DNA of 62,967 nt, the filler included. It is 9 parts of 9 records of this genome, joined end to end, with 100 filler letters (N's around TTAATTAATTAA, not from the genome) between each part and the next. Parts side by side here need not be neighbours in the genome. Positions count along the whole stretch, not along the records: positions 47,481 to 55,371 come from SRR31156797_88645; positions 55,472 to 62,967 come from SRR31156797_89040; 7 more parts are not named here. One strand, given 5' to 3'. Each line of letters starts with the position of its first letter. Position 1 is the first letter of the stretch. A program made the translations under genes and the position numbers. This document shows positions 8,181-59,686 of the stretch, one piece after another. The notes under the pieces were generated by a model. It did no database searches and was not told the origin of the DNA. It worked only from the letters and a program-made list of their open reading frames with translations.

Positions 8181-8181
8181 C

Positions 8182-8385: not shown

Positions 8386-8416
8386 AAAAGGCGGGGGCGC
8401 TTGTCTCCGCCTTTTT
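8386..8416 (+). terminator. Intrinsic terminator
   Basis: AAAAGGCGGGGG-loop-CTCCGCCTTTTT. Confidence 0.7.
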
Positions 8417-8549
8417 AATATAAAGCACACTCGAGTTTGAAAACCGATATTTGCCACCAACCAGCCTGGATAAATCCCCCACAAGAGAATAGCAGACGCT
8501 CGACAAGGGTAAGCGCCAATAAAAAAACATCTTCCCTGTAACTCAAGTT

Positions 8550-8905: not shown

Positions 8906-10126
8906 TTTGCTGCGGCTGCGTATAATCTGGCAGAAACCACCCGCACCATTGAAGTCGCCAAGGCTATCAAATCTATGTTCAATATCGAATTTATGAGTTA
9001 TGGAGGTGACTTTGAAGCCCTTATTGAAAAGGAGGGATTTACCCATACGCTGATCGAACCCGAATTAACGCCTAAGAAAATCGAACATATCTATAAGGTG
9101 GATCAAGGCCAGTCTTTCTCCTATATGTTCAACAGGGAAGAAGTAGAGGAACAGGTCAAGAATGAAATCGCTTATTATGAGAGGGTAAAACCCGCTGCCG
9201 TGGTTACCGGGTTTAATCTCAGCAGCACTGTCTCATGTACTGTGGCCAAGATACCCTTGGTCTGGCTTTGTCAATCGACCTGGTTTTTGAATGATTATCT
9301 TAAGCAGGATTATGCCAAGTATGCGGATATGCTCGATTACCCTGGAATGCGTCTCTTGCCGGATCACACGTTGTGTTGGTTGACTCAAAAACTTTTTAAG
9401 ATGGCTGACTTATACAGCAAACCTTACAATCAGGTTCTTGAAAGCTACGGATGTGAGCCCTGGGACTCGATGCAACAGTCCTATGTGGGGGACTACAACT
9501 TATTGTGTGAGCCTGATGATTTCTGCGAATTTGATCCATCAAGCCGAAACAATATCTATATTGGACCACTTATAGGAAAAGTCGACACACCTGTTCCCCG
9601 TGAAATTCTGGATCTTCCGAAAGACAAACCCATGATCTATTTTGCCATGGGTAGTTCTGGTCAGGCGAAGGTTATTGCTGAGATTATCGAAAGTTTTGAA
9701 GATAAGAATTATTATGTTGTGGCACCGGTGAAAAAACATCTGGAAAAACTCAAACACCCATTGAGAGTACCAGCCAATGTTCTGGTAACTGATTGGCTTC
9801 CTGCCCATAAAGTCAATCCCATGGCAGACCTTTCAGTTATTCATGGCGGAATTGGGACGGTGATGACCGCAGTGCTTTCCGGAAAGCCGATTGTCGGGGT
9901 GGGAATGCAACCTGAGCAGGAATACAATATTGACTGTTTGGTCCGAAAAGGCTTTGCAATTCGAATACGTAAGCCCAGAGTTAGTGCGAAAACCATGAAC
10001 CAAGCAATTGAGGAAATGTTATTCAATGAAGATGCGAGGGAGAAAGCATCCAGCTATCAGAAGGTGATGAAAAAGTGGGATACGCCTGAATACATGCAGA
10101 TGTTCTTTAGAGAAACTTTCGTTTGA
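8831..10126 (+). CDS. GT-B glycosyltransferase (MGT/UGT-like, GT1/GT28); native start apparently lost near 8895
   Basis: YNLAETTR N-terminal motif, FAMGSSG, WLPA, IHGGIGT, QPEQ; first ~22 aa lie in antisense IS sequence. Confidence 0.8.
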   Translation: MLDPGFPVKFRHGRFDTCTRSITIVFAAAAYNLAETTRTIEVAKAIKSMFNIEFMSYGGDFEALIEKEGFTHTLIEPELTPKKIEHIYKVDQGQSFSYMFNREEVEEQVKNEIAYYERVKPAAVVTGFNLSSTVSCTVAKIPLVWLCQSTWFLNDYLKQDYAKYADMLDYPGMRLLPDHTLCWLTQKLFKMADLYSKPYNQVLESYGCEPWDSMQQSYVGDYNLLCEPDDFCEFDPSSRNNIYIGPLIGKVDTPVPREILDLPKDKPMIYFAMGSSGQAKVIAEIIESFEDKNYYVVAPVKKHLEKLKHPLRVPANVLVTDWLPAHKVNPMADLSVIHGGIGTVMTAVLSGKPIVGVGMQPEQEYNIDCLVRKGFAIRIRKPRVSAKTMNQAIEEMLFNEDAREKASSYQKVMKKWDTPEYMQMFFRETFV

Positions 10127-10557
10127 ACAGAGCATGGCTGGAAGCCAAGATATGTATTTGATATCTGTACATTTTAGCTGCTTCAGGTATGTTGGAGGAA
10201 GCACAAGTGTCATGCCATCCAAGAGGAGGCTATTTCCAGCATCTCTCAACGCTTAATCCATCGCCGTCCCGATGAGGATATCACAGTCCTTCCGTGATCT
10301 GATTTTTAACAAGAATCAGTAACTATTGTATTCCGGAGATTCATTCGTATGCAAAACAACTTAGGGGGAAGTGGATTCAAGAAAATTATCGGTAATCCAG
10401 CATCACCAGGCGGATAATGAGTATTCTCATGGCCAATCTGCAGCCGATAATCCCTGGAAAATGAGATTGGCGTATAATTGCGTCGGGTTTCCTATTCCTA
10501 AGGACGTCATAGAATGCCAGGAGCATGGTTTTTAGATTCCATTCCCCTTGAATGCCG

Positions 10558-12573
10558 TCACCGTGCCTTGGGATACTTTATCGGGCAAGGCCTGTTGGGA
10601 TCGTTCCGAAGTGGACAGAGATAAGTGGAGTTCACCATCCAGGAGTTTTGACCGACGTTGCCCTCGTAACCGATGACGCCGCTCCAGATGTAGCTTCCGA
10701 TTCGGAGCACAAATTCCTGTTCGCCCGTAACATCTCCGGGCGGTATCCCGGAAAGGTCGATGAGGTTGGGGCCACCGTTCTCACCGTCGTGCGAGCCCAT
10801 GATGATCAAAGCCACCTTTCCGCTGTCCCACTTGACCTCCACCCAATCTTCAGCGTAACCGAAAATCCGCGCCCGCCCCTGGTCTACCTCACCGCTGTTG
10901 CCCGGAAACACGCCTTCCGGATCGCGTCCCAGTCGGCCGTCCTCGTCGGAAATAACGTATTCACCGCACCTGAAGTATACCTGGCTTGCCGGCGTGATCA
11001 GCTGCGTGGGATCAATGCCTTCATCGGTGATCTCCACTTCGAAGGATAAATAGTAACTGTCGGATCGATTCCCGCCGCTAGACTCGGCGTGGTAGGAGGT
11101 CAGGGTGGCCTCGGGGATTTCCGCCCCTTCGATGTGAAGAGAATCCGATCTATTGAGAGCGTTGTTGAAAATGAGGTCGCGAACCACGTCGGGGCCTCTA
11201 AATTTTCTCGGAAAATTCATCATCACCGTTTCGGTCAACTGCCCGTGAGCGGTATCGTGCCCGTAGGGGTAGAGCTCTTTACTGGCCCAGCGGTTCATGG
11301 GCTTCGTGGTCGAGGAAGGCGGTAGGTCGTCGGAGTAGGAAAGAAAATTGATGTACCAGTATTCACCGGGATTGTCCAGTGCATGTCTTTGAAGCGAGAG
11401 GAAATATGGTTGTTTGTGATACCATCCTTGCGGGTTGTATACGTCTTGGATAAAGAAATCGACCTTGTCTTTGGACGTGAACGTTGTGTTTTTTTGCCAA
11501 TGGACGTAAATGCCACGATCACCATCACCATGTACGCAATGGTCTCGAACGACGAAAACGATTTTGTTCCGAACCTCCCCCAATTTAGGCATATCGTTTT
11601 TCAACCAATATCGATCCAAGCCCGGATTGCGTGCTTTCAGGACGCTCATGAACTTGTCGGAAATGTCCTCGTCGCCGTGCTCTTGCTTGATGAACATGAT
11701 GATGGTCTCTCCGGGGTTTTTATCCAGGAACTCGAATGCTTGACGAATCACGGTATCGAATTTTAGATCGGCCTGAACAAAGCTGTGAAAAATTCTCAAT
11801 GGGCCGTCGTCGCCGACCCCCAGTCTGATGTCGAAGGCGCGAATGCCAAAATACATTTGGGCCAACAAGGCGTACTGCTGGCAGACCGCATAATCGTCGA
11901 GACCACTATTCATGGCATAAGTGCCGGAGTCGTGGGTACCGGGGATGGCGATTTCCGACAGCTTCTTGTCGTCGTCGATGTACTGGCTCATCCATTTAGG
12001 GAAAGTGCCGTTGGCGGTTACGTAGAAGGTGTCAACGCTCTCTCCGCTGTCTCCGCCAGTGTTCGACCAGATGCTGTACTTGCCGTCCCGGGTGCATATT
12101 ACCCACCTGGGGGTGATACCGATGAAACCAGTTCCCCCGCACCACCAATTATTCCTTCCATTATATCCCTGTCCCACATTCAATTCATATTGATTGCCGT
12201 CCATCTGAATCGCGCCATAGACGAAGAAGTTGAGTTTGTCCGGCTCCAATTTGAGATCTCCCGTATCATTACCGATGATGCTTCGCTCATAGTCCATGAC
12301 GTCAATAAAATCGGTGGCGACGTCCTGGGAGCCTTTTCTGTGACTTTTGGCATCGATCTCGACTCCGTTCCCATTGTCGTGGACCCAACACCCCCCCCAG
12401 CATTTGTCACCTGTGACAACATGGCCCCAGAGCAAGTAACCCAGCTTGGGGCCGCTTGAGTTGAAATAGACCTTGTTGTGGTGTTCCCAGCAGATGTGCG
12501 CCTCGGCCCGCGCGCTGATAGTGGTCGTCAACAGCGCCACCAAGAGGAAGAATCCAATTTTCAAGGAATTCAT
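10558..12573 (-). CDS. Secreted PI-specific phospholipase C (X-domain) protein with extra N- and C-terminal domains
   Basis: Signal peptide; LSEIAIPGTHDSG, CQ..L..Q...GIRAFDIRL, IFH, PGETIIMFIKQE, LGEVRNKIV, IQDVY. Confidence 0.85.
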   Translation of the reverse strand: MNSLKIGFFLLVALLTTTISARAEAHICWEHHNKVYFNSSGPKLGYLLWGHVVTGDKCWGGCWVHDNGNGVEIDAKSHRKGSQDVATDFIDVMDYERSIIGNDTGDLKLEPDKLNFFVYGAIQMDGNQYELNVGQGYNGRNNWWCGGTGFIGITPRWVICTRDGKYSIWSNTGGDSGESVDTFYVTANGTFPKWMSQYIDDDKKLSEIAIPGTHDSGTYAMNSGLDDYAVCQQYALLAQMYFGIRAFDIRLGVGDDGPLRIFHSFVQADLKFDTVIRQAFEFLDKNPGETIIMFIKQEHGDEDISDKFMSVLKARNPGLDRYWLKNDMPKLGEVRNKIVFVVRDHCVHGDGDRGIYVHWQKNTTFTSKDKVDFFIQDVYNPQGWYHKQPYFLSLQRHALDNPGEYWYINFLSYSDDLPPSSTTKPMNRWASKELYPYGHDTAHGQLTETVMMNFPRKFRGPDVVRDLIFNNALNRSDSLHIEGAEIPEATLTSYHAESSGGNRSDSYYLSFEVEITDEGIDPTQLITPASQVYFRCGEYVISDEDGRLGRDPEGVFPGNSGEVDQGRARIFGYAEDWVEVKWDSGKVALIIMGSHDGENGGPNLIDLSGIPPGDVTGEQEFVLRIGSYIWSGVIGYEGNVGQNSWMVNSTYLCPLRNDPNRPCPIKYPKAR

Positions 12574-12841
12574 GATTATTCCCTTTCCTGTGGTTGTGTT
12601 CTGTTATAACCTGAGCCGTAAATTGTTCGCGTCTTTTCTTTTTTCGGCGGCCTTAAGACTTGCTTCCCGAATTTTAAACATGGCTTGCTCCTTGAAAAAG
12701 GCTAACCTACTGAATAGAGTTCGAATGATTGGTTGGATATTGACTGATTTAATGACAAAAGATACCTATAAGTCAAGAAAAGATGGTTTTATGAATGGTC
12801 AGGATTTCTTAATACTTGGCAGAACTCCAGGGAAGGACTCC

Positions 12842-13261
12842 GTGCATCATAAAAGCGGGGTACCAAGGACAGAAGGGTGCTCTTGCCGGCCCCGGTAGAT
12901 CCGACAAAGGCCACCATCAGACCCTGCTTGAGGTAAAAGGAGACGTCATTGAGCACCCGTTCTTGGGGTGAATACCCAAAACTCACCCCGTCAAATACGA
13001 TGGCTTCTCTGTGGCGGTGGAGCTGTCTTGCTTGAGGACGGTCCCGTATGTCCGCTACGGTGCCCATGATTTCAAAAACGCGCTGGGTGGCGCCCTGAAC
13101 GGTCTTGATCTGATTGTTCACCAATGCAAGTCTTTTGATCGGCCTGTAAACCCTTGAAAACACATAGGCCATTGTCATCAGTTCCCCAAGACTGTGATGG
13201 AAATAGACCTTCCCCACGATCAAGACCCCTGGCATAACGAATAAGGTTAGAGTTTGAGAGC
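12842..13261 (-). pseudogene. MsbA-like ABC exporter fragment that stops abruptly after the Walker A region
   Basis: FDGVSFGY, VGSTGAGKSTLLSLVPRFYD followed by unrelated residues and a stop at 12789; no signature or Walker B. Confidence 0.7.
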
Positions 13262-13361
13262 NNNNNNNNNNNNNNNNNNNNNNNNNNNNNNNNNNNNNNN
13301 NNNNNTTAATTAATTAANNNNNNNNNNNNNNNNNNNNNNNNNNNNNNNNNNNNNNNNNNNN

Positions 13362-13681
13362 TTGATCTGCATGCAGCCGACGTCGATGTTGCCGACACCG
13401 CGCTTGCGCAGTTCGCGAACGGCGTCGATTGCCGCCCACTTGGTGTCGTATTTGACATCGCCCTCGGGTGACGTAACGGTCCAGGGCCAAGCCGAAACCG
13501 TTCCCGACGCCTCGTCGTAACGCCCCGATTCGGCACGCGCGATGGCCGTCAGCAGGTGCGCCGGAATTCCGTTGATGCGCTCCTGATAGGCGGTGAAATT
13601 CTCGCACGATCCCGCCATTGCATTGCCGCCAAGCGCCGCCGCCAGGGCCGCCGTCACGATTGCCAAGGTAACTTTTTTCAT
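13362..13681 (-). CDS. Lytic transglycosylase (SLT), 3' truncated
   Basis: Signal peptide; AIARAESG, AWPWTV, IDVGCMQI. Confidence 0.85.
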
Positions 13682-26200: not shown

Positions 26201-26206
26201 GTATTT

Positions 26207-26279
26207 GAACCGGTAGCTCAGTTAGTAGAGCGTCAGCAAAACACGCTGGAGGTCGCGGGTGCAAGCCCCGCTCGGTAGA
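26207..26279 (+). tRNA. Degenerate tRNA-like element (Val-like, anticodon AAC)
   Basis: 73-nt cloverleaf with canonical spacing: D stem GCTC/GAGC, AC stem TCAGC/GCTGG, loop AAAACAC, variable AGGTC, T stem GCGGG/CCCGC, T loop TGCAAGC; acceptor GAACCGG/TCGGTAG mismatched at pairs 1-2; no CCA. Confidence 0.7.
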
Positions 26280-26320
26280 GCTATGAGGTGAATTAAAATC
26301 ATATTTCTACCGAGCGTGTC

Positions 26321-47480: not shown

Positions 47481-47594
47481 ATAGATGATTTGGCATTAAT
47501 GGCAAACCTGGTGAGACAGCTGTACGTCTACACAACTTCTGATGTGATGGAACAGGTGGACGAGCTGATGCCGGAATGGGCAAAGGGGAAATAG
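47481..47594 (+). CDS. 3' end of a probable YkvA/DUF1232 protein
   Basis: IDDLALMANLVRQL...LMPEWAKGK*; DDL motif. Confidence 0.45.
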   Translation: MDDLALMANLVRQLYVYTTSDVMEQVDELMPEWAKGK

Positions 47595-47707
47595 CGTAAG
47601 CACAGTTAACCAAAAAACTCAAACAACATAATAACAAAAATTTCAGAGCAACGACTACAGAGCCCCGTGCCTTAACTGGTATGGGGTTTTTAGTTTCAGG
47701 AGGATTT

Positions 47708-48106
47708 ATGAAAATTCAGGACAAAGGATACGTGTTACCCGTCAGCAAAGAACTTGTAGATCTCTTAAACCGAGTGATCGAAAACTCAGGAAAGAATGGA
47801 AACGAGGCTTTATATCTCAATTTCAGAGATCCCGGATACTCCCCTGAAAATGGAGGATTCCATCCAGTGGAAATCATGGTCACAGAAGATGGCAAAATCC
47901 AATACATCACAGACTTTGCCTATGTAGGATATCCAGCAGAATTGGTTAAGGAAATCGACTTCGATTTTGCAGCAGGAGTTCTTCAGCATTTTGGCCAAGA
48001 GCGTTTCATCGGGCATAGCCACACCCTCTTCACTCTCTGGCAATTCAACTTCTGCACTTATTTCAAAATGGGCGTCTACGATATCACCGTCAAGGAGGTA
48101 TACTAA
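47708..48106 (+). CDS. DUF2787 family protein
   Basis: LNFRDP.YS.E.GGFHPVEI, YITDF.YVG...ELVKEIDFDF, LWQ.NF; AGGAGG RBS. Confidence 0.88.
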   Translation: MKIQDKGYVLPVSKELVDLLNRVIENSGKNGNEALYLNFRDPGYSPENGGFHPVEIMVTEDGKIQYITDFAYVGYPAELVKEIDFDFAAGVLQHFGQERFIGHSHTLFTLWQFNFCTYFKMGVYDITVKEVY

Positions 48107-48525
48107 TGGCTATCAACAATAAAGAAATTATTCTAACCCATGAATTCGTCAAACAAGAATTTAAAGATGTTGGCGAAAATATAAATAAAAATCTTTCAAC
48201 AATCAAAATGACCTTAACCAGGGATACCCACACTGAATCTGTTGATCTTGAAATCCGCATCTATGGAAAAGATCATGATGTAGATTCCGATCCGATTGTT
48301 CAACGCCTATATTCTGGAGAATCGGATATCTTCGATGCAGGTATGTTAAGGACTGGAGGGGCAGTGGCACCGTATAGGGTACTCTCTCTATTCGATCAAA
48401 GGTTATTGGATCTGTTTATCAACTCCAAAATCAAAATCCATTGGAATGAGGGTGATGATACCCACGCCGAGCTTGATCCAGTGCCTCAAAAGAACATCGG
48501 TCTACTGTTTGTCCAGGACCAGTAA
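48106..48525 (+). CDS. Hypothetical protein coupled to DUF2787
   Basis: TAATG stop/start overlap; 139 aa. Confidence 0.7.
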   Translation: MAINNKEIILTHEFVKQEFKDVGENINKNLSTIKMTLTRDTHTESVDLEIRIYGKDHDVDSDPIVQRLYSGESDIFDAGMLRTGGAVAPYRVLSLFDQRLLDLFINSKIKIHWNEGDDTHAELDPVPQKNIGLLFVQDQ

Positions 48526-48535
48526 CATTCCAATA

Positions 48536-48650
48536 GGTTCAGATTGCGGGGTTTTTTGGCCGATTTCAGAGGATCATTCATCGGGGCATACCATTGGGTT
48601 GCGCCGGGGATGAACCTCTGGGATCGGTCAGAATAGCCGCAACCTGAACC
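48536..48650 (+). other. 115-nt imperfect hairpin (candidate structured RNA or ssDNA element)
   Basis: GGTTCAG/CTGAACC, TTGCGG/CCGCAA, TGGCCGATTTCAGAGG/CCTCTGGGATCGGTCA and inner stems. Confidence 0.65.
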
Positions 48651-49061
48651 ACTACTCTGATTAATCCCGCCCCCACCATTCTTGAAGGTCGCATTTCAAC
48701 ATCCACAGCCCACAGTATTGATCCGTTTTGGAATGCACAGAGCCAAGAACCCCACCTTCGCCATTTCGCCATTTTCCAATTTCAATAAAATGCAGAGTTA
48801 TCAATACCGTAAAACCACCAATGTCATCGGCACAGACGATTCTTCCGAAACGGTATTTCAATGTTTTCCGCAAGACTTACCCGTAGGTTCCCCCTCTCGG
48901 ACCCGTCATTGACCCGTAATTAAACGTTCAAATTAACAATGTATTGAGTGGCAAGGGATTCCGGCTACAGGCCCTCGGTCTTTTTCTCCCATGACAGCAA
49001 AACCACTCTATCCAGCTTGAAATTATCTAATCAGATTCAACATAATTTGGAGGACAAACCA

Positions 49062-50288
49062 ATGGCATCACAAAGACAAATCGAAGGAAAATTCATTCGC
49101 TCTTTTAAGTTCAACAAAAGGAATATTGAAGGGCTCCCAGCTCATGATAAGGACGCCAGATCCGCAGATCAGGAATATAGCGATCTTGAATGTAGGGGAT
49201 TGAAAGTAAGTGTATCAAAAAACGGAAGACGATTCTTCCTGCATAGATATCGGATGAAGAAGGGAAACAAGAGCGTCCGACGTTCATATAGGATAGGCGA
49301 ATTCCCGGCGATCACAGTTCAGGAAGCTCGTCAGATAGTGAATGAGAACAAACGCCTGATTGCATTGGGCACAGACCCCCTGGAAGAAAAAGAGAAGCAG
49401 TCAAAGATATTAACATTTGAAGAATTCTTTGAAACTGAATACATGACCAACTACGCCAAGAAGGTTAAGAAATCATGGCGTCATGATCAATGGATGTATG
49501 ATTCAGATTTGAAAGATGCTTTTGGTAAATATCAGCTGTCTGAGATATCAAAACATTCGATCAGCAAATTCGTTTATGCCATTAAGGACAGGACCAGTGG
49601 AGCAAGGGCAAATAGATTCTTGAGTTTGATCTCAAAGGTATTATCAACGGCGATTGACTGGGAGTTTCTGGACGGAGACAACCCATGCCGAAGGATCAAG
49701 AAATTTAAGGAGAGCGCCGGAAGGACCAGGTATCTCTCAACTGAAGAAATCAAACGTCTAAAGAAAGCCCTTGATGCATCGACACAGCGTGTTTCAGCGC
49801 TGGCTATATGGTTCCTGTTGACGACAGGATGCCGGTTAGGGGAGGCAATGAGTCTGACCTGGGAGAATATTGAAATTGACAAAAAGATCGCACATCTGCC
49901 AAAAGAGATAACCAAGAATGGCAGTGCAAGATATGTCGTTCTGAATGAGCAGGCCCTTGAAACCCTTGAGAAGTTGAAAAAGTACCGAATCAAAGGCAAT
50001 CCTCATGTTTTTCCGGGAACAGGACCGACCGGACATTTGATGTCACCGAGAAGAACCTTTGAGACGGTGAAAGAGCGTGCAAAGCTCGACGATCTTCATC
50101 TCCATGACCTCAGACATTCCTATGCCTCTCTAATTGTATCAAGCGGGAACCATTCACTCTACACCGTGAGCCAACTCTTAGGCCACAAAAGCCAGGCCAT
50201 GACAATGCGCTATAGCCATTTGGCTCAACAAACATTAGTGGATGCATCCGAATCAGTAGCATCCCAGCTTGAAGAAGCCACAAAGTAG
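49062..50288 (+). CDS. Tyrosine integrase with N-terminal arm-binding domain
   Basis: GGAGG RBS; RIGEFPAITVQEAR; TGCRLGE, TKNG, HDLRH, LLGH, MT.RY. Confidence 0.95.
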   Translation: MASQRQIEGKFIRSFKFNKRNIEGLPAHDKDARSADQEYSDLECRGLKVSVSKNGRRFFLHRYRMKKGNKSVRRSYRIGEFPAITVQEARQIVNENKRLIALGTDPLEEKEKQSKILTFEEFFETEYMTNYAKKVKKSWRHDQWMYDSDLKDAFGKYQLSEISKHSISKFVYAIKDRTSGARANRFLSLISKVLSTAIDWEFLDGDNPCRRIKKFKESAGRTRYLSTEEIKRLKKALDASTQRVSALAIWFLLTTGCRLGEAMSLTWENIEIDKKIAHLPKEITKNGSARYVVLNEQALETLEKLKKYRIKGNPHVFPGTGPTGHLMSPRRTFETVKERAKLDDLHLHDLRHSYASLIVSSGNHSLYTVSQLLGHKSQAMTMRYSHLAQQTLVDASESVASQLEEATK

Positions 50289-50304
50289 ATATAGCCATCA
50301 TCGG

Positions 50305-50339
50305 AAAGCCCTTCCTTTCTACAAGGAGGGGCTTTTTTT
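50305..50339 (+). terminator. Intrinsic terminator after the integrase
   Basis: AAAGCCCTTCCTT-TCTAC-AAGGAGGGGCTTTTTTT. Confidence 0.8.
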
Positions 50340-50459
50340 ATTGATGCAAAGGATAAACTTGTCCTCATCAACCATCATCGGCATTGAACAGGTCCAGCTT
50401 GCAGAGCAATGTAATTCCTGATACACCTCTCAACATTTTTTAAAGAAAAGGAAAGCCCA

Positions 50460-53400
50460 ATGAGTTTTGACACATTACATACTGATTACAGCCATTTTTT
50501 TGAATTCTTCGAGACCAAACAATCCTCTCGCATTCAAACCGTCTATGATAACGTTTACTATATGGTAATTGACGCAGAATGGTATGAATCTGCCGGAAGA
50601 AACGTCGTCTTGTCTTATCAGATAGCTACAGTTTCCAGGGAAAGATCGAATAACATCATACGCTATATGAAACACGGCCAAAGGTTGAAGCTTGTTGAAA
50701 TCGTAGAACTGGGCATCCAGTCCGTCACAGAGGAAGAGCTTTTAAGATCCCATAAAAAGTCAAAGAATCTTGTTATCCTGATAAGCCACAATCTCACAGC
50801 GGAATGGAGCGTCCTCGCAGATCGAGACAAGCGACATATAACCAAAAGACTTGCACTGGTCAGGAAGTCACCCATCACAGACGGGCATTATATTAAACAG
50901 GTGATCAGAAAATCCATCCCTGTGGACATTGGATTCTTCGACACAATGTTACTCGCACCAGCGGCCTTCAGGAGCCTTAAAAAGCTGTCAGCACTGCTGG
51001 GGGAAAAAGATTCAGAAAAGGAATCCATCACCCAATTTTACATTGAGAACATGAATCTCTACCTCAGAGATCACCCTGACAAATTTGAAAAGTACGCTTT
51101 GAAGGACAGTGAAATAACCCTGCAATTATTTTTCTTGCTCCAGGACTCCTTAAACGAATTAGTAGATGACCGTTTTAAACTATACCGTACCCTGGCATCA
51201 GCCGGTGTAGATGGCTTTATCAACAAGAATGAATGGTTTACTGCCTACAGAGATGACCTAAACGGAGATAAATTCAGCAATGCTCTCCAGTTGATCAAGC
51301 GATCATACTACGGGGGTCGAAATGAAGGGTTCTTTATCGGACGGACAAAAAACTATCCAGAAACAAAAAACAAATTCTGGATTGATATCGACTTTTCAGG
51401 GTGTTACCCGACGGCGATGGCTTTATGTCCCAAAATCGATACAGAGGGAAAGATAGAGCATATCCCATTAAAATATAAAATCGATGAAACGGTTATTGGT
51501 CGACTTATACAGCTGAAGATAGCGCCGGAGACGATCGATAAAGCCAAAGATGCCCTCGACAAATCGGTAGAAGAATTCGATCAAGCTTTATCGGCGATAC
51601 CCAATAAAAAAACGGCGAGGACAATAAAGACCGAAGCAACGTTAATAAATAACAAGCTGATCAACAGATGGCATCGACAATGGCAAACAGCAAAACAGAA
51701 TAACGACGATTCAATTGAAAAGTATTTAACCCCAGGATTCGCTCGAATTCTATTCAAATTCCCGGCAGACACGCAATTCCCATGTTTACCCATTCGGCAT
51801 GAGAAATACGGCCTAATATACACCTTAGAAGGCGAGACAACGGCAACTGCTACAGAGATAGTACTGGCACTGGAGGCAGGGGCAAAGATTGACGCTCTAA
51901 CCAGCTTGGAACTTCCCATCGAGAAAGATGATGACGGGAACCCGATAAGATTTACATTACCCCATCTCAAAAAATTAGCACTGGATAGAAGCAGATACAA
52001 AAAGGACAAAAGCAACCCCAAAGCACAAGTCTTTGAAAAATTGATCAAAGAATTTATGAACAGCTTTTATGGGAAATTCGCCCAAGCTATAAACTTTAAA
52101 AAAAATTATAAACCTTCGACGCGAGAAATGAAGGTACTGAGGGATTCAAAGTTATCAGAACCATGCACAGCTTCTTTAGTGACTTCCCTGGCAAGAGCGG
52201 CGCTTTCAGCTACTTTAATCGGCATCTCAAAGTTTAACAAAGGGAAAGAAACGTTAGAAGAGCAGATAACCGTGATAAGCGCCACAACCGATGGCTTATT
52301 AATCGGGGTTCCGGCACCGGAGGGCTTCACAGTCTTGGATGAATATTACGAAACTGACAATGGTATCCCAAAGTTGAAAGGCACCGTAGATAGCCAACTG
52401 CCAAAGATACTAAAAAATTATGGCTGTGAGAACCTTATCGAAATATTAGATGGGTATCTACCGATAAAACAGATGCGGAAATCAAGGCTGGAGATGACTG
52501 GGAATGATGAAGTCTTTGAAATAAAGCACATGGCTGATGAAATAATCTCCGTAAAGACCAGGGGGCAAATCGGGTTACTTTCCTCTGGCCATACATCGGT
52601 ACTGGCAAGATTCGGCCTGAGACCACCATTGAGCGAGATAATTGATGACCCGGAAGAATACAAAAGGCTCATGGATACCGGAGGGACTGAAAAAGATACG
52701 GTGGATGCTCAATGGATACTGAAGCATATCGACAGTATTGAAAACGGAGAAGATAAAATACCCGAGTACACATTCATTACACTGAAATCGTTCAGAGATA
52801 TCTATGAGAGTAAAGAAAAGATAGATTTAACAAAAAAGATTTCCGATCGAAAAATCAACACGGACTTTGACTGGAAAAGAAAATTAGTAAGAAGCAAGGA
52901 AACTGAAGGTTCCGCAATTTCCCCTTTCACAAGACCATATGAAAACATATCTGTGATGCTGCGGCACAGAGATCAAATGGAAGCCATTCGAAGAACTGGA
53001 CATGTTGCAAGACCAGAAAAAATCCTTGATAGAATCAGCATTCAGGGCCGTAATACAAGGTTCAGGGGTGGAGAACCGGTTACAGTAACTCGCCTATTCC
53101 TGAGATGGATAATGCAGGATTCAACCAATTTAAACAAGCCTACGGGGACATATCAATCAATGGCAGAAAGCCTGAATGACCTTTGGGAACAAAAAGGGTT
53201 AACCGAGACATACCCGAAAATCTGGAAGTCCCACGATATTACAAACGCCAAAAGAGCTAAGCATGAAGTGGGATGCATCAAGGCAAATATTCTTTTAGAG
53301 GAAATTGTACAGACCCTTTCAGATACATTCGGAGCTGATCCCATAGCGGCAAACAAGGCTATTTTCGCCATCGAGGAGTTCAAAGCGAATCAAACAGCTC

Positions 53401-53984
53401 TCATTGAACAGGTCATTTCCGCAATCATAGACGGCCCTAAAAACGATATAGAACCCTTCAAAGGGCTTTCAGCTCAAGGATATCTGCCTGCCTTAAAACA
53501 GATCAAAGACAGATTCTGCCAACAATTAAGTGATGAACAACTGGAAGCATTTTTAAGCAGGCCATTCACGCCGGGCCAAAGACCATCCTATGACGCAAAG
53601 GAACTGAAAAAATTATTCTACTCATTGGGAATCCCAATGACCAAAGCAGAAGCTTGTGCAAAGAGTATAGCACCTCCCCCGGCCCAAAGCGCCAGGAAAA
53701 GTCGATTCAACCCCGGTCAGAAGAAATGCACTGAACATTTCGCCCAGGCAATGCAATCAATCATCGTGGCAGACATGAACCGAAAGACATTAAAGGGCAA
53801 AAAAGTGATTGATAAATTAAGCAAATACGGCTTGAGCAGAAACAAATATTATCGAATAAAGGACGGAAGATTCACGCCCAATAGTATAAAAAACACCCCA
53901 AAGAACATCAGCCAAATAAAGAGGATGGCAAAAGCTTTTAAGTTGGAACCATCACAATTCATAGACGTTTTGATCGAAAAATAA
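50460..53984 (+). CDS. Primer-independent family B DNA polymerase (piPolB), 1174 aa
   Basis: ExoI IDAEW, ExoII HNLTAE, DTMLL, ExoIII YALKD, YYGGRNE, PolA DFSGCYPTAM, PolB KEFMNSFYGKFAQ, PolC SATTDG, KH, KTRG, DFDWKR. Confidence 0.9.
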   Translation: MSFDTLHTDYSHFFEFFETKQSSRIQTVYDNVYYMVIDAEWYESAGRNVVLSYQIATVSRERSNNIIRYMKHGQRLKLVEIVELGIQSVTEEELLRSHKKSKNLVILISHNLTAEWSVLADRDKRHITKRLALVRKSPITDGHYIKQVIRKSIPVDIGFFDTMLLAPAAFRSLKKLSALLGEKDSEKESITQFYIENMNLYLRDHPDKFEKYALKDSEITLQLFFLLQDSLNELVDDRFKLYRTLASAGVDGFINKNEWFTAYRDDLNGDKFSNALQLIKRSYYGGRNEGFFIGRTKNYPETKNKFWIDIDFSGCYPTAMALCPKIDTEGKIEHIPLKYKIDETVIGRLIQLKIAPETIDKAKDALDKSVEEFDQALSAIPNKKTARTIKTEATLINNKLINRWHRQWQTAKQNNDDSIEKYLTPGFARILFKFPADTQFPCLPIRHEKYGLIYTLEGETTATATEIVLALEAGAKIDALTSLELPIEKDDDGNPIRFTLPHLKKLALDRSRYKKDKSNPKAQVFEKLIKEFMNSFYGKFAQAINFKKNYKPSTREMKVLRDSKLSEPCTASLVTSLARAALSATLIGISKFNKGKETLEEQITVISATTDGLLIGVPAPEGFTVLDEYYETDNGIPKLKGTVDSQLPKILKNYGCENLIEILDGYLPIKQMRKSRLEMTGNDEVFEIKHMADEIISVKTRGQIGLLSSGHTSVLARFGLRPPLSEIIDDPEEYKRLMDTGGTEKDTVDAQWILKHIDSIENGEDKIPEYTFITLKSFRDIYESKEKIDLTKKISDRKINTDFDWKRKLVRSKETEGSAISPFTRPYENISVMLRHRDQMEAIRRTGHVARPEKILDRISIQGRNTRFRGGEPVTVTRLFLRWIMQDSTNLNKPTGTYQSMAESLNDLWEQKGLTETYPKIWKSHDITNAKRAKHEVGCIKANILLEEIVQTLSDTFGADPIAANKAIFAIEEFKANQTALIEQVISAIIDGPKNDIEPFKGLSAQGYLPALKQIKDRFCQQLSDEQLEAFLSRPFTPGQRPSYDAKELKKLFYSLGIPMTKAEACAKSIAPPPAQSARKSRFNPGQKKCTEHFAQAMQSIIVADMNRKTLKGKKVIDKLSKYGLSRNKYYRIKDGRFTPNSIKNTPKNISQIKRMAKAFKLEPSQFIDVLIEK

Positions 53985-54109
53985 CAAGAACTACAGGGTT
54001 GAGCATCTATAAAATCATGGAGGGATCTTTCATATCAGGGCTAACGGTATGAATAATAGATCCAGTCACCCACGGTTCACGGGATGATCAACCCTTGGGA
54101 ACACAGAAA

Positions 54110-55201
54110 ATGACCCCCAAATTCGAACCAATATACACAATCCGACCTGACAGCGAGTCGTTGACGTTTAAAAGTTTCCAGACGTCCGGAAACTCGTTTA
54201 AGGGACAACATCTTTCAAAAAACGAGATGTTCAAACGCTGGCAAAAAATCAGCGTCAAGCCCTATCAACAGCGTATCTTTGACTTTTATTTATCATGTAT
54301 GATAGTGCTCTCTGGTGATTTTCATCAACGAAGGGCGATACAAAGAAAAATAGCTCGAAAAGCCAGAAACATTGAGTTTAAGACTGGAAGAGTTCAGGAT
54401 TATTTAAAGGAAGCAATGGAAAATACAATGCAGACCAATTCTTCAAAACAGCCCAAAGTTAAGAAGAGCAAAGCCATAAATGCAAAGAAGGTAAATTCGA
54501 TACTCAAGAAAGCCTTTGTGGATGTAAAAACAGAGCTGGGATTCCCCACAATAGACCCGGTTGAATATTCATACGAGATCACCGATGAAGTCATTGCATC
54601 AACAACGACGGAGGAATGCCAACGGTATCTTGAACAATCTCAAACCACCCAGCTCATTCTTCCAAAGGACTTTGAAAGGATACAGGACAAACTAAAATCG
54701 ACCTACCCCGACGACGCAAAAGATGTACTCTCAGCGCTCAAGAAGACAAAATCAAGAGAACATCTTTCCGTCGCCTCTATAGACACAGATAATGATGAAA
54801 TTTTCATTCACATTGTCAATCCACTGCGCCAGCAAATCAGAATGGAAAGCTGGAAATTCTTACTTCTCATTGAAGAAGACAAGACGCCAAGGCAATTATA
54901 TGACTTTGACAATTGGAGTTATGGTGACCCCGCCCACAAGTTCATATTCAACAACTGCAAAGCAGGCATAGTCGAGGGGAGGTTCAATTCTAAAAGCTCT
55001 TCGATAGAGGTTGTATGCAGGGGCACCAACCCCACCGACATCATGGATAAAGCGACTTTTATCATCGACAGCACCTATGCCCTTTGCCTGTACACAACAT
55101 TGAAAAGGCTGAAAGATGATAAAATCAGATTTACTAAATTGAAGGAAGAAGCGGAAACGACAGTAGCCAACAGAGATGACTTTGATAAGTTATTCCAATA
55201 A
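54110..55201 (+). CDS. Hypothetical protein downstream of piPolB (start uncertain)
   Basis: About 363-aa ORF with composition like piPolB; no motif recognised. Confidence 0.7.
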   Translation: MTPKFEPIYTIRPDSESLTFKSFQTSGNSFKGQHLSKNEMFKRWQKISVKPYQQRIFDFYLSCMIVLSGDFHQRRAIQRKIARKARNIEFKTGRVQDYLKEAMENTMQTNSSKQPKVKKSKAINAKKVNSILKKAFVDVKTELGFPTIDPVEYSYEITDEVIASTTTEECQRYLEQSQTTQLILPKDFERIQDKLKSTYPDDAKDVLSALKKTKSREHLSVASIDTDNDEIFIHIVNPLRQQIRMESWKFLLLIEEDKTPRQLYDFDNWSYGDPAHKFIFNNCKAGIVEGRFNSKSSSIEVVCRGTNPTDIMDKATFIIDSTYALCLYTTLKRLKDDKIRFTKLKEEAETTVANRDDFDKLFQ

Positions 55202-55518
55202 ACACACTTGAAACGGAGAAGTTATGACCAAGGAAGTAGGACAAGACCGGACAGATACCAAGAAGCCAGCAAAGACCAAAAATATTTTAAATGACCTTTT
55301 AAGCCCATCCTTGAAGGGAAACGATAAACTCAATCAAGGCCTGTTAAGTGTCACACTAAATTAACCCATAGNNNNNNNNNNNNNNNNNNNNNNNNNNNNN
55401 NNNNNNNNNNNNNNNTTAATTAATTAANNNNNNNNNNNNNNNNNNNNNNNNNNNNNNNNNNNNNNNNNNNNCTTAAAATCCGGCGCACCTGTGGCAGATT
55501 TAATTCTGACCATGGGCC

Positions 55519-57507
55519 TTAAAATATATTTCCTGTAAACCCTAAATGGTCGTCCATCCATCTATCTGTCTGCAATACATCTGTCCGCTGGCGTAAGGCC
55601 CTTTTTTCAGCTGCTTTCTGGGCCTTCCGGACCATCCAGCCTATCAGGTATGTGCAAAATTTTTGACGGCTGTTTTTAAAATACAGACCTGCCAAAGTTA
55701 ACACAAAATCGTTAAAATTTTGAAGCAGTTCATCGTCAAGACTCGCAAAGGCCCGGCAGCTACCCGGATCTCCCTGGCGGGCTGTCCGCCCATATAATTG
55801 AGAATCAATCCGTTTGGCCTCATGGCGCTCCGTGGCGATGACATGCAGTCCGCCCAGGTCGGCCACCCCGCTTTCCAGGCAGATATCGGTGCCTCTGGCC
55901 GCCATGTTGGTGGCCACGGTGATACGGCCTTTTTTGCCGGCTTCCCCAATGATCCGGGCCTCTTGTTCATGGTGGACGGCATTCAGGACGTTGTGGCGCA
56001 GTCCCTGGTCAGAAAGTAATCGGCTTACGTGCTCACTAACTTTAACACTTCGGGTCCCCACCAGAACGGGACGTCCTTTCATGTGGGTTTCACCAATCTC
56101 TTTGACAATGGCCGTCCACTTTTCTTTTTTTGAACCACATATGTGCATGGGCAGATATTTTCGTTTGCAGGGCCGATGTGTCGGGATGACGACTACGGGC
56201 AATTGATAGATTCTCCAGAATTCGGCCCTGGCATCCGCAGCGGTACCGGTGGTGCCTGACAAGGTTTTATAATACCGGAAAAACCGCTGAAAACTGATGC
56301 GCGCCACGGTTTCCCGGGGCAGATTAATCTCAAGATTTTCCTTTGCCTCTACTGCCTGGTGGATACCTTTCTGCCAGGACCGGTCCGGCATGAGCCTCCC
56401 GGTGAATTCGTCCACAATCACTACCTTCCCCTGATTGATAATATATTGTTCGTCCCGGATAAAGAATTTGCGGACGATTAACGCCTGGATGATCATTTCT
56501 TCGCGGCGGCGGGCACCGGTCCACATGCCCCCAAAAGGCTTGGCCATATCTGCGATCCGCTCTTTTCCCCGTGGGGTCAGCTTAATTTCCCGGTACTTGT
56601 GATGCACTTTAAAATCAACATCCTGTGCAAGCTTCCGGGCCCATTGGGCGGCTTGAATAAAGGTTTCTTCTTGTATCTGGTTGGCGCCTTGTCCTGAAAT
56701 AATTAGCGGGGTTATGGCTTCATCAATTAAAATGGAATCCGCCTCATCCACGATAGCCGTGTCCAATCCCCGTTGAACCAGCCGGCTGCCAGTGCCGGTT
56801 GAACTGCCTGACAATTTATTCAAAATGGCGGAGGCACTGCCGTGAATCCGGCCTAATATCAATTGATCCCGGAGAAAATCTGCCGCCACTTCCTTGTTGG
56901 TGCAGTACGTTATATCGGCATGATAAGCCCGGCGGCGCTGGTCCAGCGGCGTGTCCTGCCATATATGGGCCACCGTCAGGCCGCAGAACCGGTAAACCGG
57001 GGCCATTTGCCCGGCATCGCGTTGGGCCAGATAGTCATTGGCCGTCACCACATGGCATCCCCGGCCTCTCCACCCGGCCAGAACAGAGGCCATGGCAACG
57101 CTTAAGGTTTTGCCTTCACCGGTTGCCATTTCCGCGATATATCCGGTTTCCAACGCCAGGGCCCCGGCCAGTTGAACCGGATAAGCCGTCAGTCCAATGG
57201 TCCGCCCGGCGACTTCACGGATCAGTGCCAGGGCCTGGAGCCGGTCTCCTATCGTATCCCGGCGGAGCAGAAACTGTTCCTTAATCCGGGACACCTGCTC
57301 TTTTAGGTGGTGGTCCGGCAACCGGCTTATATTTTCTGACAGGGAAATGATCCGGCCGGCCTGCTGCATCAGGGGGGGCGATGTTGTGACAAACTGCTTA
57401 TAAAATCCGGTCATCCGGTCCCATAGACCGTCCAGCCCTGAGGGCAGATCTGGGGTGACAGGCCTCTGGGAGAGTGTTCGCCAGGTGATGCCAAACGTTT
57501 TTTCCAT
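55519..57507 (-). CDS. Short SecA paralogue (NBD1-PPXD-NBD2, C-terminal wing/IRA1/zinc region missing), about 662 aa
   Basis: EMATGEGKT, TANDYLA.RD, VDEADSILIDEA, VDEFTGR, VATNMAARGTDI, RID.QL.GR..RQGDPG; start MEKTF right after the upstream stop. Confidence 0.9.
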   Translation of the reverse strand: MEKTFGITWRTLSQRPVTPDLPSGLDGLWDRMTGFYKQFVTTSPPLMQQAGRIISLSENISRLPDHHLKEQVSRIKEQFLLRRDTIGDRLQALALIREVAGRTIGLTAYPVQLAGALALETGYIAEMATGEGKTLSVAMASVLAGWRGRGCHVVTANDYLAQRDAGQMAPVYRFCGLTVAHIWQDTPLDQRRRAYHADITYCTNKEVAADFLRDQLILGRIHGSASAILNKLSGSSTGTGSRLVQRGLDTAIVDEADSILIDEAITPLIISGQGANQIQEETFIQAAQWARKLAQDVDFKVHHKYREIKLTPRGKERIADMAKPFGGMWTGARRREEMIIQALIVRKFFIRDEQYIINQGKVVIVDEFTGRLMPDRSWQKGIHQAVEAKENLEINLPRETVARISFQRFFRYYKTLSGTTGTAADARAEFWRIYQLPVVVIPTHRPCKRKYLPMHICGSKKEKWTAIVKEIGETHMKGRPVLVGTRSVKVSEHVSRLLSDQGLRHNVLNAVHHEQEARIIGEAGKKGRITVATNMAARGTDICLESGVADLGGLHVIATERHEAKRIDSQLYGRTARQGDPGSCRAFASLDDELLQNFNDFVLTLAGLYFKNSRQKFCTYLIGWMVRKAQKAAEKRALRQRTDVLQTDRWMDDHLGFTGNIF

Positions 57508-57508
57508 A

Positions 57509-59686
57509 TCAGACCTTAAATCTTGGCTGGAAGAGTTGCAACAATTCACGCCAACCCTGAACCAGCAGGGGCCTGGGTCGGGTTTCAAACCGGAGCACGA
57601 CACGTTGACCGGGACGAAGGCTTGACCGGCTTTCTGGAAGAGGTTCGACAATGATTTCAAAAAAAGGCTCTGCTGCCCTGCGTCCGCTGGGATCTTTCGC
57701 ATCTGTCTGTGTGGCGCCGCCCGCAGCATACCCGAGAGCCGCCGAAGGCAATTGTTCATGTCCGGCCGGCAGGATGGTTTTGATACGGCAAGGCAGGGCA
57801 ATATCGGGTCGTCCTTTGACCCGCATTTCTACCAGAGGGTGTGCCTCCTGTATCAACCGGGCCGCTTCTTTCTGACCGGCCACTGCCCGTACCTGCAGGG
57901 CCTCCAGGCTTGCCACCATACCAATGCGGTGGCCGCGTTCAAGGAACCGGCCGGTCAAGCCTTCGGCTTCCGGCGATATCCAGGTACCGGAGATGGGAGA
58001 GGTGAGGCTCAGTGCGGCCGTCTGTTGCCGGTTCCGCTCTAGTTGTTCCGCCACCGCCGCTATTTTTTCTTCCAGGACCTGGACAGCAGCGGCACCCTGG
58101 GTCTGGGCCATCTGCCGGCGGATGTTTAAGTGCCGCAGGTCGGCCAGAAGACTTTTTCTCTGCATGTCAACCACTGGATTTTCCGCTTGAATCAGCCTGG
58201 ATTTTTTGGATTCGATCCAGGTGCCGCTCTTTTGGATCGTATGGACAAAACCGGCTGTCTGGATGTATATTTCGGCGAAAATGGCCGGCTCGACCACCCC
58301 CTCAATCCGGCACCGGTCCGGCAGGTTCACCAACCCAACGGCTGTAACCAGGCCGGCTGAGGCCAGAATGGATGTGGCAACGGCCCGCGGCCGGACCCGG
58401 ATCAATTCACGGCTGGTCGTAAGATAGCGGATTAATTTGCCGGCGGGCACAACCACCCAGCTGAAAAACAGGAGCGCCGCAATCACCATTCCCACCACGG
58501 CCAGTCTGCTGCCGATGGTCACGGTGATGACCACCATGATGAGCAGGCGGGTCAGGATTGATGCCAGGGCATAAAAACAGAGCCATTTTTTTTCCCCTTT
58601 TGCATGGCTCGGATCATGAGCATTATCCATGCCCCAGATATACCGTTTGATCAGGTAGGCTGCATAAAGTTTAGACCGGGGTTCAAGATTGGGAATTTCC
58701 AGCAGATCAGACAATAAATAATAGGCGTCGTACCGCAGGAAAGGATTGCCGTTGAAAAGCAGAGTGGATATACTGGCCACAAACATCAGGTTGTAGGCAA
58801 TGGCGTGGGCGGTACTGCCTTCTGCCGTCCTGGACCAGACAAAGGCAGCCACGGCAGCCACGGCAAATTCAACCATCATGCCGCTGGCGCTAACCACCAT
58901 CCTGCGAAGTTTGCTTTTAAAGGCCCATGCCCCAGAGGCGTCTACAAACGGCAAGGGGGTAAAAATCAGAAAGGTAACCCCCATTTGGTGAACTTCTCCG
59001 CCGGTGCCTTCCATCCGGCCAAAATGTTTACAGGCCAGGGCATGCCCCATTTCATGGCCTATTTTTAAAAGTACAAGGGACAGATATAAAAGCGGGATAT
59101 TTTTCGGGTTAAGCAAAGCAGATGCCTGGTTGCCTAACGCATCCACGCGGCCGAGTAACGTCCACAGGCCTGCGGCGATGACGATCAGCCACAGCATCAG
59201 ACCGGTCCGTGAAAAAAAATGTCCAAAAAAACGGCTCCATACATCCAGGAATTGATCCGGATCCCAGAGAGGAATCCGCACAAACAAAAGATTGAGTAAA
59301 AATCCCTGAACTTCACGTCGTCTGCGCTGCCGGTAACGCCGGAAAAGGGATTGGGCATCCGGCGGGATGGTGGTTTGCAGTAAATTGGCCTGGTATAACT
59401 GGCCCAATATCCGGATGACTTCGTCCTGTGTGGGGGCATCGTCTCCAAATCTATCCAAACTTTGCTGCCAGACTTGAGCTACGGTGTGCCGGCCGTCCAG
59501 CATGGCAGCAAAATAATAGGCCGTGTCGCTCAGCCGGAAAAAATCATTATTGACCGGATCCCGGAGAACCGCCCATTTTTTCCCTCTAAAAGATTGGTTC
59601 CGAACCTTGACTGAAGTCGGAAAGCATGGGGTCAAATCGGCGACGCGGTACCAGGATTCACTGAATGTTGGGCGGTTATCTGTCAA
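57509..59686 (-). CDS. PqqD-like/M50 (site-2 protease-like)/HlyD fusion membrane protein
   Basis: DP....FFRL...LDG..T N-terminus; HEMGH; NGNPFLRYDAYY; TM segments; C-terminal coiled coil and barrel. Confidence 0.85.
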   Translation of the reverse strand: MTDNRPTFSESWYRVADLTPCFPTSVKVRNQSFRGKKWAVLRDPVNNDFFRLSDTAYYFAAMLDGRHTVAQVWQQSLDRFGDDAPTQDEVIRILGQLYQANLLQTTIPPDAQSLFRRYRQRRRREVQGFLLNLLFVRIPLWDPDQFLDVWSRFFGHFFSRTGLMLWLIVIAAGLWTLLGRVDALGNQASALLNPKNIPLLYLSLVLLKIGHEMGHALACKHFGRMEGTGGEVHQMGVTFLIFTPLPFVDASGAWAFKSKLRRMVVSASGMMVEFAVAAVAAFVWSRTAEGSTAHAIAYNLMFVASISTLLFNGNPFLRYDAYYLLSDLLEIPNLEPRSKLYAAYLIKRYIWGMDNAHDPSHAKGEKKWLCFYALASILTRLLIMVVITVTIGSRLAVVGMVIAALLFFSWVVVPAGKLIRYLTTSRELIRVRPRAVATSILASAGLVTAVGLVNLPDRCRIEGVVEPAIFAEIYIQTAGFVHTIQKSGTWIESKKSRLIQAENPVVDMQRKSLLADLRHLNIRRQMAQTQGAAAVQVLEEKIAAVAEQLERNRQQTAALSLTSPISGTWISPEAEGLTGRFLERGHRIGMVASLEALQVRAVAGQKEAARLIQEAHPLVEMRVKGRPDIALPCRIKTILPAGHEQLPSAALGYAAGGATQTDAKDPSGRRAAEPFFEIIVEPLPESRSSLRPGQRVVLRFETRPRPLLVQGWRELLQLFQPRFKV

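Follow-up and report, generated by a model that had tools for sequence, protein, structure and literature searches.

The 62,967-nt stretch of DNA analysed here (the window) consists of nine contigs of 5.1-9.3 kb each, joined by eight identical 100-nt linkers (44N-TTAATTAATTAA-44N), and positions 47481-55371 are exactly the eighth of them, a contig of 7,891 nt with a GC content of 0.42. We think it likely that this contig 8 is a fragment of a pipolin-superfamily integrative mobile element, whose primer-independent family-B DNA polymerase (piPolB) belongs to a clade of long enzymes and copies the element with the assistance of a partner protein. The evidence that we observe directly is the gene content of the contig, the motifs of its 1174-aa polymerase (P0001), the membership of this protein in the piPolB family by profile and by tree, the linkage of the polymerase gene to the partner gene, and the tRNA-flanked integration of one relative.

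The polymerase is encoded by an intact open reading frame (ORF) of 1174 codons with an ATG start, as an earlier note on this DNA, made from the sequence alone, had proposed. That note had also drawn attention to two departures from the usual family-B motifs, SATTDG in PolC and KH/KTRG in place of KxY, and both can be read in the translation, the latter with the exact KH-X8-KTRG spacing. Position 609, the first of the three central PolC residues, is Thr in 26/26 long-clade rows and 60/62 other piPolB-like rows of our alignment and Asp in 4/4 protein-primed family-B polymerases (pPolBs); piPolBs are described as being without the first Asp of motif C (PMC7544198). K689 and R701 are invariant in 88/88 piPolB-like rows, and in alignment A1, which holds 35 long and short relatives, T609, T610, D611, G612, K689 and R701 are all invariant. 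In piPolBs KH-X8-KTRG replaces KxY, and its first lysine, K613 in the Escherichia coli enzyme, is needed for priming (PMC5695915).

The remaining family-B motifs are ExoI (IDAEW, aa 37-41, with D38 and E40 present), ExoIII (YALKDSE, aa 212-218, with Y212 and D216 present), PolA (IDIDFSGCYPTAM, aa 308-320) and NSFYGKFAQ at aa 534-542. The exonuclease and polymerase motifs had been called complete; the exonuclease set is not fully canonical, with Glu115 in place of Asp in ExoII. By alignment columns, the 25 long-clade rows with a residue at the ExoII position all have Glu, compared with Asp in 58/61 other piPolB-like rows and in 4/4 pPolBs.

The polymerase gene does lie on the same contig as a tyrosine integrase and a DUF2787 protein, both of which are recognised by their Pfam domains. 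The integrase scores 51.3 bits for Arm-DNA-bind_3, 27.9 bits for Phage_int_M and 92.6 bits for Phage_integrase, and it matches the phrog_1 integrase family (E 2.6e-68).

A surrogate piPolB profile of 62 sequences, made up of 60 search matches and the polymerases of plasmids pSE-12228-03 and pLME300 with the long clade left out, gives P0001 a score of 406 bits (E 1.5e-119, Z=1e6). With this profile the pPolB of Bam35 reaches 76 bits, a Bacillus plasmid pPolB 69, that of PRD1 44 and that of phi29 10, and E. coli Pol II has no match. The cut-off of ExplorePipolin, E 1e-50, was set on that tool's own profile (PMC9710591).

One MAFFT alignment served for three trees: a FastTree tree of 93 rows and 828 columns, a quick IQ-TREE tree of 44 rows and 744 columns, and a careful IQ-TREE tree of the same rows and columns as the quick one. 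Rows were drawn at random from the search matches; the 93-row set contains 14/63 long matches of the word-based search, 13/13 long and 40/107 short representatives and 18/18 distant matches, and the 44-row set is a random subset of it. The outgroups are the four pPolBs (phi29, PRD1, Bam35 and the Bacillus plasmid enzyme) and one RNA-primed polymerase, E. coli Pol II. The piPolB-like rows, which include the long clade, the other matches and the two plasmid piPolBs, separate from the pPolBs and Pol II with support of 99 (FastTree), 99 (quick IQ-TREE) and 100/99 (careful IQ-TREE). A polymerase phylogeny had been named in the earlier note as a check, and P0001 falls with the piPolBs and not with protein-primed polymerases or Pol II. 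Judged from these comparisons, the membership of P0001 in the piPolB family appears solid, and the description of contig 8 as a divergent pipolin agrees with the piPolB signatures, the profile score, the tree split and the adjoining integrase and DUF2787 genes.

Within piPolB, the long clade is monophyletic in every tree (100 in FastTree, 100 in quick IQ-TREE, 100/100 in careful IQ-TREE). In the FastTree and quick IQ-TREE trees its sister is the main short group, and in the careful one it is basal (support 53/89). The basal arrangement is not rejected by the approximately unbiased (AU) test (p-AU 0.658), and that tree is 8 log-likelihood units better than the quick tree. A description of the long clade as nested inside piPolB, taken from the FastTree and quick trees, was given up in view of the AU test and the careful tree.

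Relatives of P0001 are numerous. A word-based search returned 93 relatives, about 75 of which are 1100-1360 aa long and 34-88% identical to P0001; the 88%-identical one sits on a 30.6-kb contig. A profile search for the wider family, run over 1.84 billion representatives, returned 8103 proteins at E <= 1e-3, of which 1459 reached E <= 1e-30; long proteins span the whole profile, and many proteins of 800-1000 aa end near position 850 of its 1055. The polymerase had been called unusually long, which is true beside the 800-1000-aa forms and not beside the two published Gram-positive plasmid piPolBs, of 1109 and 1146 aa.

The two places where extra length had been noticed, an insertion of about 90 aa after PolA and a long C-terminal extension, are both features of the clade. 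The segment from PolA to F432 has a median of 133 aa in the long clade (15 rows) and 42 aa in shorter piPolB-like proteins (58 rows); it is 62 aa in the two plasmid enzymes and 44 aa in the four pPolBs. By position, the insert would fall in the TPR1 region of pPolBs, and a TPR-bearing architecture has been reported for piPolBs (PMC5695915). There is a further lengthening between PolC and KTRG, with a median of 95 aa in the long clade vs 51 aa in other piPolB-like rows. From aa 880 onward to the C-terminus, the medians are 294 vs 96 aa in the same two groups, and for the tail after KTRG they are 475 aa (76 proteins) vs 260 aa (58 proteins). The C-terminal extension is present in 39/39 long-clade rows of alignment A2, with a mean pairwise identity of 33% vs 46% for the core. 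In shorter proteins it gave only four matches, which resemble cut polymerases (one is labelled partial).

An AlphaFold2 (AF2) model of aa 860-1174 has 17 helices at a predicted local distance difference test score (pLDDT) of 92.3. No fold could be assigned to it: the best Foldseek match has E 0.73, and the best VIA-align match (Z 5.9) is a helical protein of unknown function. VIA-align also gave scattered helix-turn-helix-like rows (Z ~3.3) over the last ~90 residues, Pfam gave only sub-threshold matches to RnlB_antitoxin, HTH_19 and HhH-GPD (E 0.011-0.09), and the ESM Atlas held no usable match for the extension or for the partner protein. By its sequences, the long clade of Geobacterales-type bacteria differs from described piPolBs in the ExoII Glu, the insert, the C-terminal extension and accessory genes of its own that are linked to the polymerase. 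As far as we have seen, none of these four features has been described before.

The first of these accessory genes is the partner gene. Homologues with 30-36% identity lie directly after the polymerase gene in the relatives' stretches L001, L002 (36%), L011 and L014, and the partner is directly downstream in all relatives with downstream DNA examined. The stop and start codons of the two genes often overlap in relatives. An alignment with homologues suggests that the true start of the partner in contig 8 is the ATG at 54110, five codons past the listed TTG (54095); counted from this ATG, the gap after the polymerase stop is ~125 nt, whereas four relatives show an overlap of 1-8 nt between these genes. 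Among 239 species genomes of the order that contains a Geobacter metagenome-assembled genome (MAG) with a related polymerase, a partner profile matches 7, the same 7 that keep the C-terminus of the polymerase, always immediately downstream, and 0 of the other 232. The partner was not found on three pipolin plasmid records named in the literature.

Genes of ~210 and ~150 aa come next after the partner in G001, G066, G147, G180, G195 and L014; in L011 the ~210-aa gene is present and then the contig ends. Contig 8 itself ends 170 nt past the partner, before the place of these two genes.

The AF2 model of the partner has a pLDDT of 75.1. Residues 225-355 were matched by VIA-align to Whirly/PUR-type folds (the compared folds being PBF-2, StWhy2, Pur-alpha and MRP1/2): 1l3a with Z 5.7 and a root-mean-square deviation of 5.4 over 116 aligned residues, 3n1h with Z 5.3, 3k44 with Z 5.2 and 2gia with Z 4.8, which are ranks 1, 2, 3 and 5. 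Foldseek gave 2gid with a probability of 0.69 (E 0.37), and also 2gje, 2gia and 1l3a (E 0.35-0.58). As a lead only, these models suggest that the C-terminal domain of the partner may be of the Whirly/PUR-like type that binds single-stranded DNA (ssDNA). In PHROGs the partner of the window has one weak match to a 'replication initiation protein' (E 0.0033), on which we do not rely, and PHROGs and PADLOC gave nothing for the L002 partner homologue or for the ~210-aa and ~150-aa genes.

Integration of a relative is seen in the Geobacter sp. MAG G001, whose polymerase is 48% identical to P0001. It lies in an island of ~23.1 kb with an intact tRNA-Arg(CCT) gene at one end. At the other end, 167 nt from a P4-type integrase gene, the 3' part of the tRNA gene and the sequence downstream of it are repeated in direct orientation over 88 nt with 85% identity. 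The cargo of the G001/L002 island includes Fic, TIR, DUF2726 and type I restriction-modification genes, which is in keeping with the published view of pipolins as defence islands (PMC11551731). Two genes upstream of the polymerase in L002 there is also a 448-aa ORF (7447-8793, +) with weak SIR2-type PADLOC matches (best E 1.3e-4), which adds to the defence-like cargo of the island. Elsewhere, G046, G147 and L014 each have a DUF2787 homologue less than 20 kb away from the polymerase, and in G195 a 40%-identical homologue of the integrase of the window lies ~4 kb beyond the polymerase module.

The named relatives are all Geobacter sp., Geomonas propionica, Geomonas nitrogeniifigens or MAGs labelled 'Deltaproteobacteria bacterium', and a polymerase match is found in 8/239 genomes of the order, one of them a 199-aa remnant and one read in three frames. 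The guess of a deltaproteobacterium-like host thus fits the taxonomy of the relatives, and by analogy with them contig 8 would have a comparable host and att site. The gene read in three frames (G195:C1:310407-313876) is a decayed long piPolB with an intact partner gene downstream; the remnant (G048:C1:1805527-1805994) is a long piPolB cut down to its N-terminus, with no partner.

Among plasmids, a tblastn search of PLSDB with P0001 found matches only in 30 Pseudosulfitobacter plasmids. In one of them, NZ_CP087043.1 (L008), a piPolB-like gene at 7818-13362 is seemingly split: the matches fall in two places, in two ORFs annotated as 'hypothetical protein' and parted by IS66-family transposase genes, and this two-place pattern is common to all 30 plasmids. 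A short relative, P0078, matches the polymerase genes of pSE-12228-03 of Staphylococcus epidermidis and pLME300 of Limosilactobacillus fermentum by tblastn. These two are known piPolB plasmids, and Pseudosulfitobacter is among the reported pipolin hosts (PMC11551731).

All listed ORFs of contig 8 are on the + strand, and their coordinates are collected with those of the motifs and other features in the table. The gene fragment at the left edge has no Pfam match at E <= 0.1, and tblastn against the relatives' stretches gave nothing convincing for it. The 139-aa orphan is empty in Pfam, PHROGs and NCBIfam and has one weak PADLOC match only (PbeC, E 0.0064). On the 7.9 kb of the contig, Pfam scans found no WYL domain in any ORF and no second, IntP2-type integrase or excisionase, and no Rep or Mob genes were seen.

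Features of contig 8 and the tRNA gene of the window (positions of the whole window)
Feature	Position	Strand	Basis or remark
tRNA-Val(AAC)	26206-26281	+	Sole tRNA of the window; contig 5 (GC 0.37), 87 nt from contig start
Gene truncated by the contig start, 3' end only (37 codons and stop)	47481-47594	+	No family
DUF2787 protein, 141 aa	47681-48106	+	Pfam PF10980, 105.7 bits (cut-off 27), E 2.7e-30; phrog_13741
Orphan ORF, 139 aa	48106-48525	+	Start overlaps DUF2787 stop
Tyrosine integrase of P4/SXT-type architecture, 446 aa	48948-50288	+	Arm-binding, central and catalytic domains
Long-form piPolB P0001, 1174 aa, ATG start	50460-53984	+	Motifs, profile, trees
ExoII motif SHNLTAEWSVL	50784-50816	+	Glu115 at the catalytic Asp position of other family-B polymerases
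Clade-specific insert of ~90 aa after PolA, aa ~320-430	51417-51749	+	Segment medians
PolC motif SATTDG, aa 607-612	52278-52295	+	Translation
KH-X8-KTRG motif KHMADEIISVKTRG, aa 689-702	52524-52565	+	Spacing exact
C-terminal extension, aa ~880-1174	53097-53981	+	All-helical model; clade-specific, ~200 aa longer
Partner gene, 368 aa from TTG start	54095-55201	+	Kept directly downstream of the polymerase in relatives
46-codon ORF, doubtful reality	55224-55364	+	No Pfam match
Assembly-graph fork	55342-55371	.	Only these final 30 nt are common to three contigs, depths 82, 94 and 125 (run X1)

The whole of contig 8 sits within a 15,777-nt contig of one sequencing run, its possible source, which runs 7.9 kb past position 47481, is unclosed and has a k-mer depth of 82. 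In run X4, a ~90%-identical contig of 9603 nt matches 47481-55339 and then diverges. The right end of contig 8, where the graph forks, is therefore some kind of junction. It may be the boundary of a module or of the element, with an att site, an allele of the empty site or the edge of the cargo as candidates. The GC content of the contigs ranges from 0.37 to 0.60 across the window, a spread that points to loose binning of a metagenome assembly. No context for the polymerase comes from the LysE gene on its left or from the SecA-like gene on its right, because both are on other contigs. The tRNA-Val(AAC) gene of contig 5 is unrelated to the polymerase. On the contig after the polymerase one, a 760-aa protein (55519-59686, -) with SecA DEAD-like, preprotein cross-linking and P-loop domains adjoins a 725-aa PqqD-domain protein; this pairing is unusual and might mark a peptide-maturation or export cluster.

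We propose the following working model for the element. The element would be integrated and cut out again by the P4/SXT-type tyrosine recombinase, with a short target that is probably the 3' end of a tRNA gene. Replication of the excised element would fall to the 1174-aa piPolB, which would begin new strands de novo and displace the other strand. The protein encoded downstream, a possible ssDNA binder, would help the piPolB; in relatives, two more small conserved genes follow it. In a bolder form of this model, which we put forward tentatively and consider rather doubtful, the long clade would be a third deep piPolB lineage beside the published Gram-negative and Gram-positive groups, with a self-contained replisome: the extension would dock the Whirly-like partner and, together with the ~210-aa and ~150-aa gene products, allow priming and copying without host replication factors.

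Several observations weigh against the reading of contig 8 as a piece of a self-copying pipolin. The contig has no terminal overlap, no tRNA and no att repeat, and it is cut at both ends, so its status as an element rests on gene content and on relatives. Among seven relatives' stretches, direct repeats spanning the polymerase were found in one, G001; the other six (G066, G195, G180, G046, G147 and L014) have no direct repeats of at least 18 nt around the polymerase and no tRNA, in stretches of only 20-40 kb that may be too short to hold both ends. P0001 is barely above the Pfam DNA_pol_B_2 cut-off (26.5 vs 25.8 bits), has no match in NCBIfam or PADLOC and has 0 matches among PDB sequences at E <= 1. 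The surrogate profile stands in for that of ExplorePipolin and was built mostly from our own unnamed matches, the trees hold neither the E. coli piPolB nor a casposon polymerase, and the position of the long clade inside piPolB differs between them. Glu115 in ExoII keeps a carboxylate, and proofreading may differ from that of the Asp enzymes. Finally, the Whirly/PUR scores of the partner are all below the stated noise level of the tool.

Given that relatives of the polymerase lie among defence-type genes (Fic, TIR, DUF2726, type I restriction-modification and weak SIR2 matches), the polymerase and its partner could instead be cargo on an integrase-moved defence island, with a host-benefit function such as damage tolerance, translesion synthesis or anti-phage defence. 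Pipolins have been described as defence islands (PMC11551731), translesion synthesis by a piPolB has been reported (PMC5695915), and in the portions of the pipolin literature covered here we met no report of a piPolB replicating its pipolin in vivo. We nevertheless regard this alternative as unlikely: PADLOC is empty for the polymerase, the partner and the ~210-aa and ~150-aa genes, the polymerase keeps all its polymerase catalytic residues and the priming lysine K689, and the tight four-gene module resembles a replication module. There is a smaller chance, which we would call slim, that the element is a free plasmid-like circle and not integrated in a chromosome. Plasmid pipolins do exist (pSE-12228-03, pLME300), contig 8 shows no chromosomal gene, and its k-mer depth of 82 and the fork at one end would suit a circle; set against these are the full P4-type integrase, the lack of a terminal overlap and of visible Rep or Mob genes on the 7.9 kb, the likely-source contig that extends 7.9 kb past the contig start without closing, and the integrated relative in G001.

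That P0001 is a decaying or inactive relic, which has lost the first PolC Asp, has an altered ExoII and has gathered bulky inserts, seems to us very improbable. The ORF is intact over its 1174 codons, the catalytic residues are still in place in ~75 full-length relatives (34-88% identity), and the inserts and extension are conserved across the clade. The missing PolC Asp is a change of the whole family and is shared with the E. coli piPolB, which is reported to be an efficient polymerase (PMC5695915, PMC7544198). What a relic would explain, apart from the missing Asp, is the ExoII Glu and the existence of broken relatives (the G195 gene in three frames, the 199-aa G048 remnant and the Pseudosulfitobacter copy seemingly split by IS66 genes). 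The least probable of the alternatives, and one that is close to refuted already, is a protein-primed or casposon-type polymerase of a linear plasmid, virus or casposon with piPolB-like motifs that arose by convergence. The sole Pfam match of P0001 is to DNA_pol_B_2, the family of organellar and viral pPolBs, it matches phage DNA polymerases in PHROGs (E 1.2e-11), piPolBs and pPolBs including those of casposons share one sequence cluster (PMC7544198), and casposon polymerases were left out of our trees. However, P0001 has Thr at the first PolC position where 4/4 pPolBs have Asp, KH-X8-KTRG is absent from the pPolBs examined, and all three trees support the split from pPolBs (99 to 100/99). A tblastn search with P0001 of 50,697 phage records gave nothing at E <= 0.1, and a scan of IMG/VR found no relative. 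The adjacent gene encodes a tyrosine integrase and not Cas1 or a terminal protein, and the relative in G001 lies at a tRNA gene with direct, not inverted, repeats.

To our knowledge, piPolBs are the only family-B polymerases that start DNA chains without a primer. The long clade is deep and populous, with ~75 full-length relatives, and offers natural variants with which to ask what controls priming, proofreading and processivity; a further question that it poses is whether pipolins bring replication helpers of their own, and it extends pipolins to environmental bacteria of the Geobacterales type. piPolBs are already used for whole-genome amplification (bioRxiv 10.1101/2023.03.17.533076). Our literature search, which covered main texts, found no paper that pairs 'pipolin' with 'Geobacter' or 'piPolB' with 'Deltaproteobacteria', and the main texts of the two main pipolin papers, as far as consulted, make no mention of Geobacterales-type taxa (PMC11551731, PMC5695915). 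The 2024 survey by Mateo-Caceres and Redrejo-Rodriguez ran over every GenBank assembly and names 181 genera in a supplement, where long-clade members may therefore already be tabulated without comment (PMC11551731).

Among known systems, the pPolBs of phi29, PRD1 and Bam35 share with P0001 the family-B exonuclease and polymerase core; unlike P0001 they have DTD in PolC and no KH-X8-KTRG, and in phi29 and PRD1 a terminal-protein gene lies beside the polymerase gene. The piPolBs of pSE-12228-03 (1109 aa) and pLME300 (1146 aa) are near P0001 in length, have TTDG in PolC and stand on the same side of the split from pPolBs. Their extra length, however, is N-terminal, with a median of 195 aa before ExoI vs 34 aa in the long clade; the plasmids are without an integrase, the partner gene was found on neither, and the pLME300 polymerase is without an exact KH/KTRG. 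The short piPolB-like group, of 800-1000 aa, has neither the insert of ~90 aa nor the C-terminal extension of ~200 aa, and the lengthening of ~45 aa between PolC and KH is missing as well.

The piPolB of E. coli 3-373-03_S1_C2, compared here by published residue numbers and motifs, shares with P0001 the TTD-type PolC, ExoI, ExoIII, PolA and SxYGK, and the spacing of KH-X8-KTRG is identical (K613/H614...K623/R625 in E. coli, K689/H690...K699/R701 in P0001); like P0001, it is encoded on an integrase-bearing island (PMC5695915). The gammaproteobacterial pipolin core consists of piPolB, IntSXT, IntP2, DUF2787, WYL and orphan genes (PMC11551731). Contig 8 differs from these pipolins in having no WYL domain, IntP2-type integrase or excisionase on its 7.9 kb, its integrase being typed by architecture only, and the long clade differs in its Geobacterales-type host lineage and in the extra conserved genes downstream of the polymerase. 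Like them, contig 8 brings together a piPolB, an integrase of P4/SXT architecture, DUF2787 and orphan ORFs, and among its relatives there is cargo of the defence type and an att site with direct repeats at a tRNA gene.

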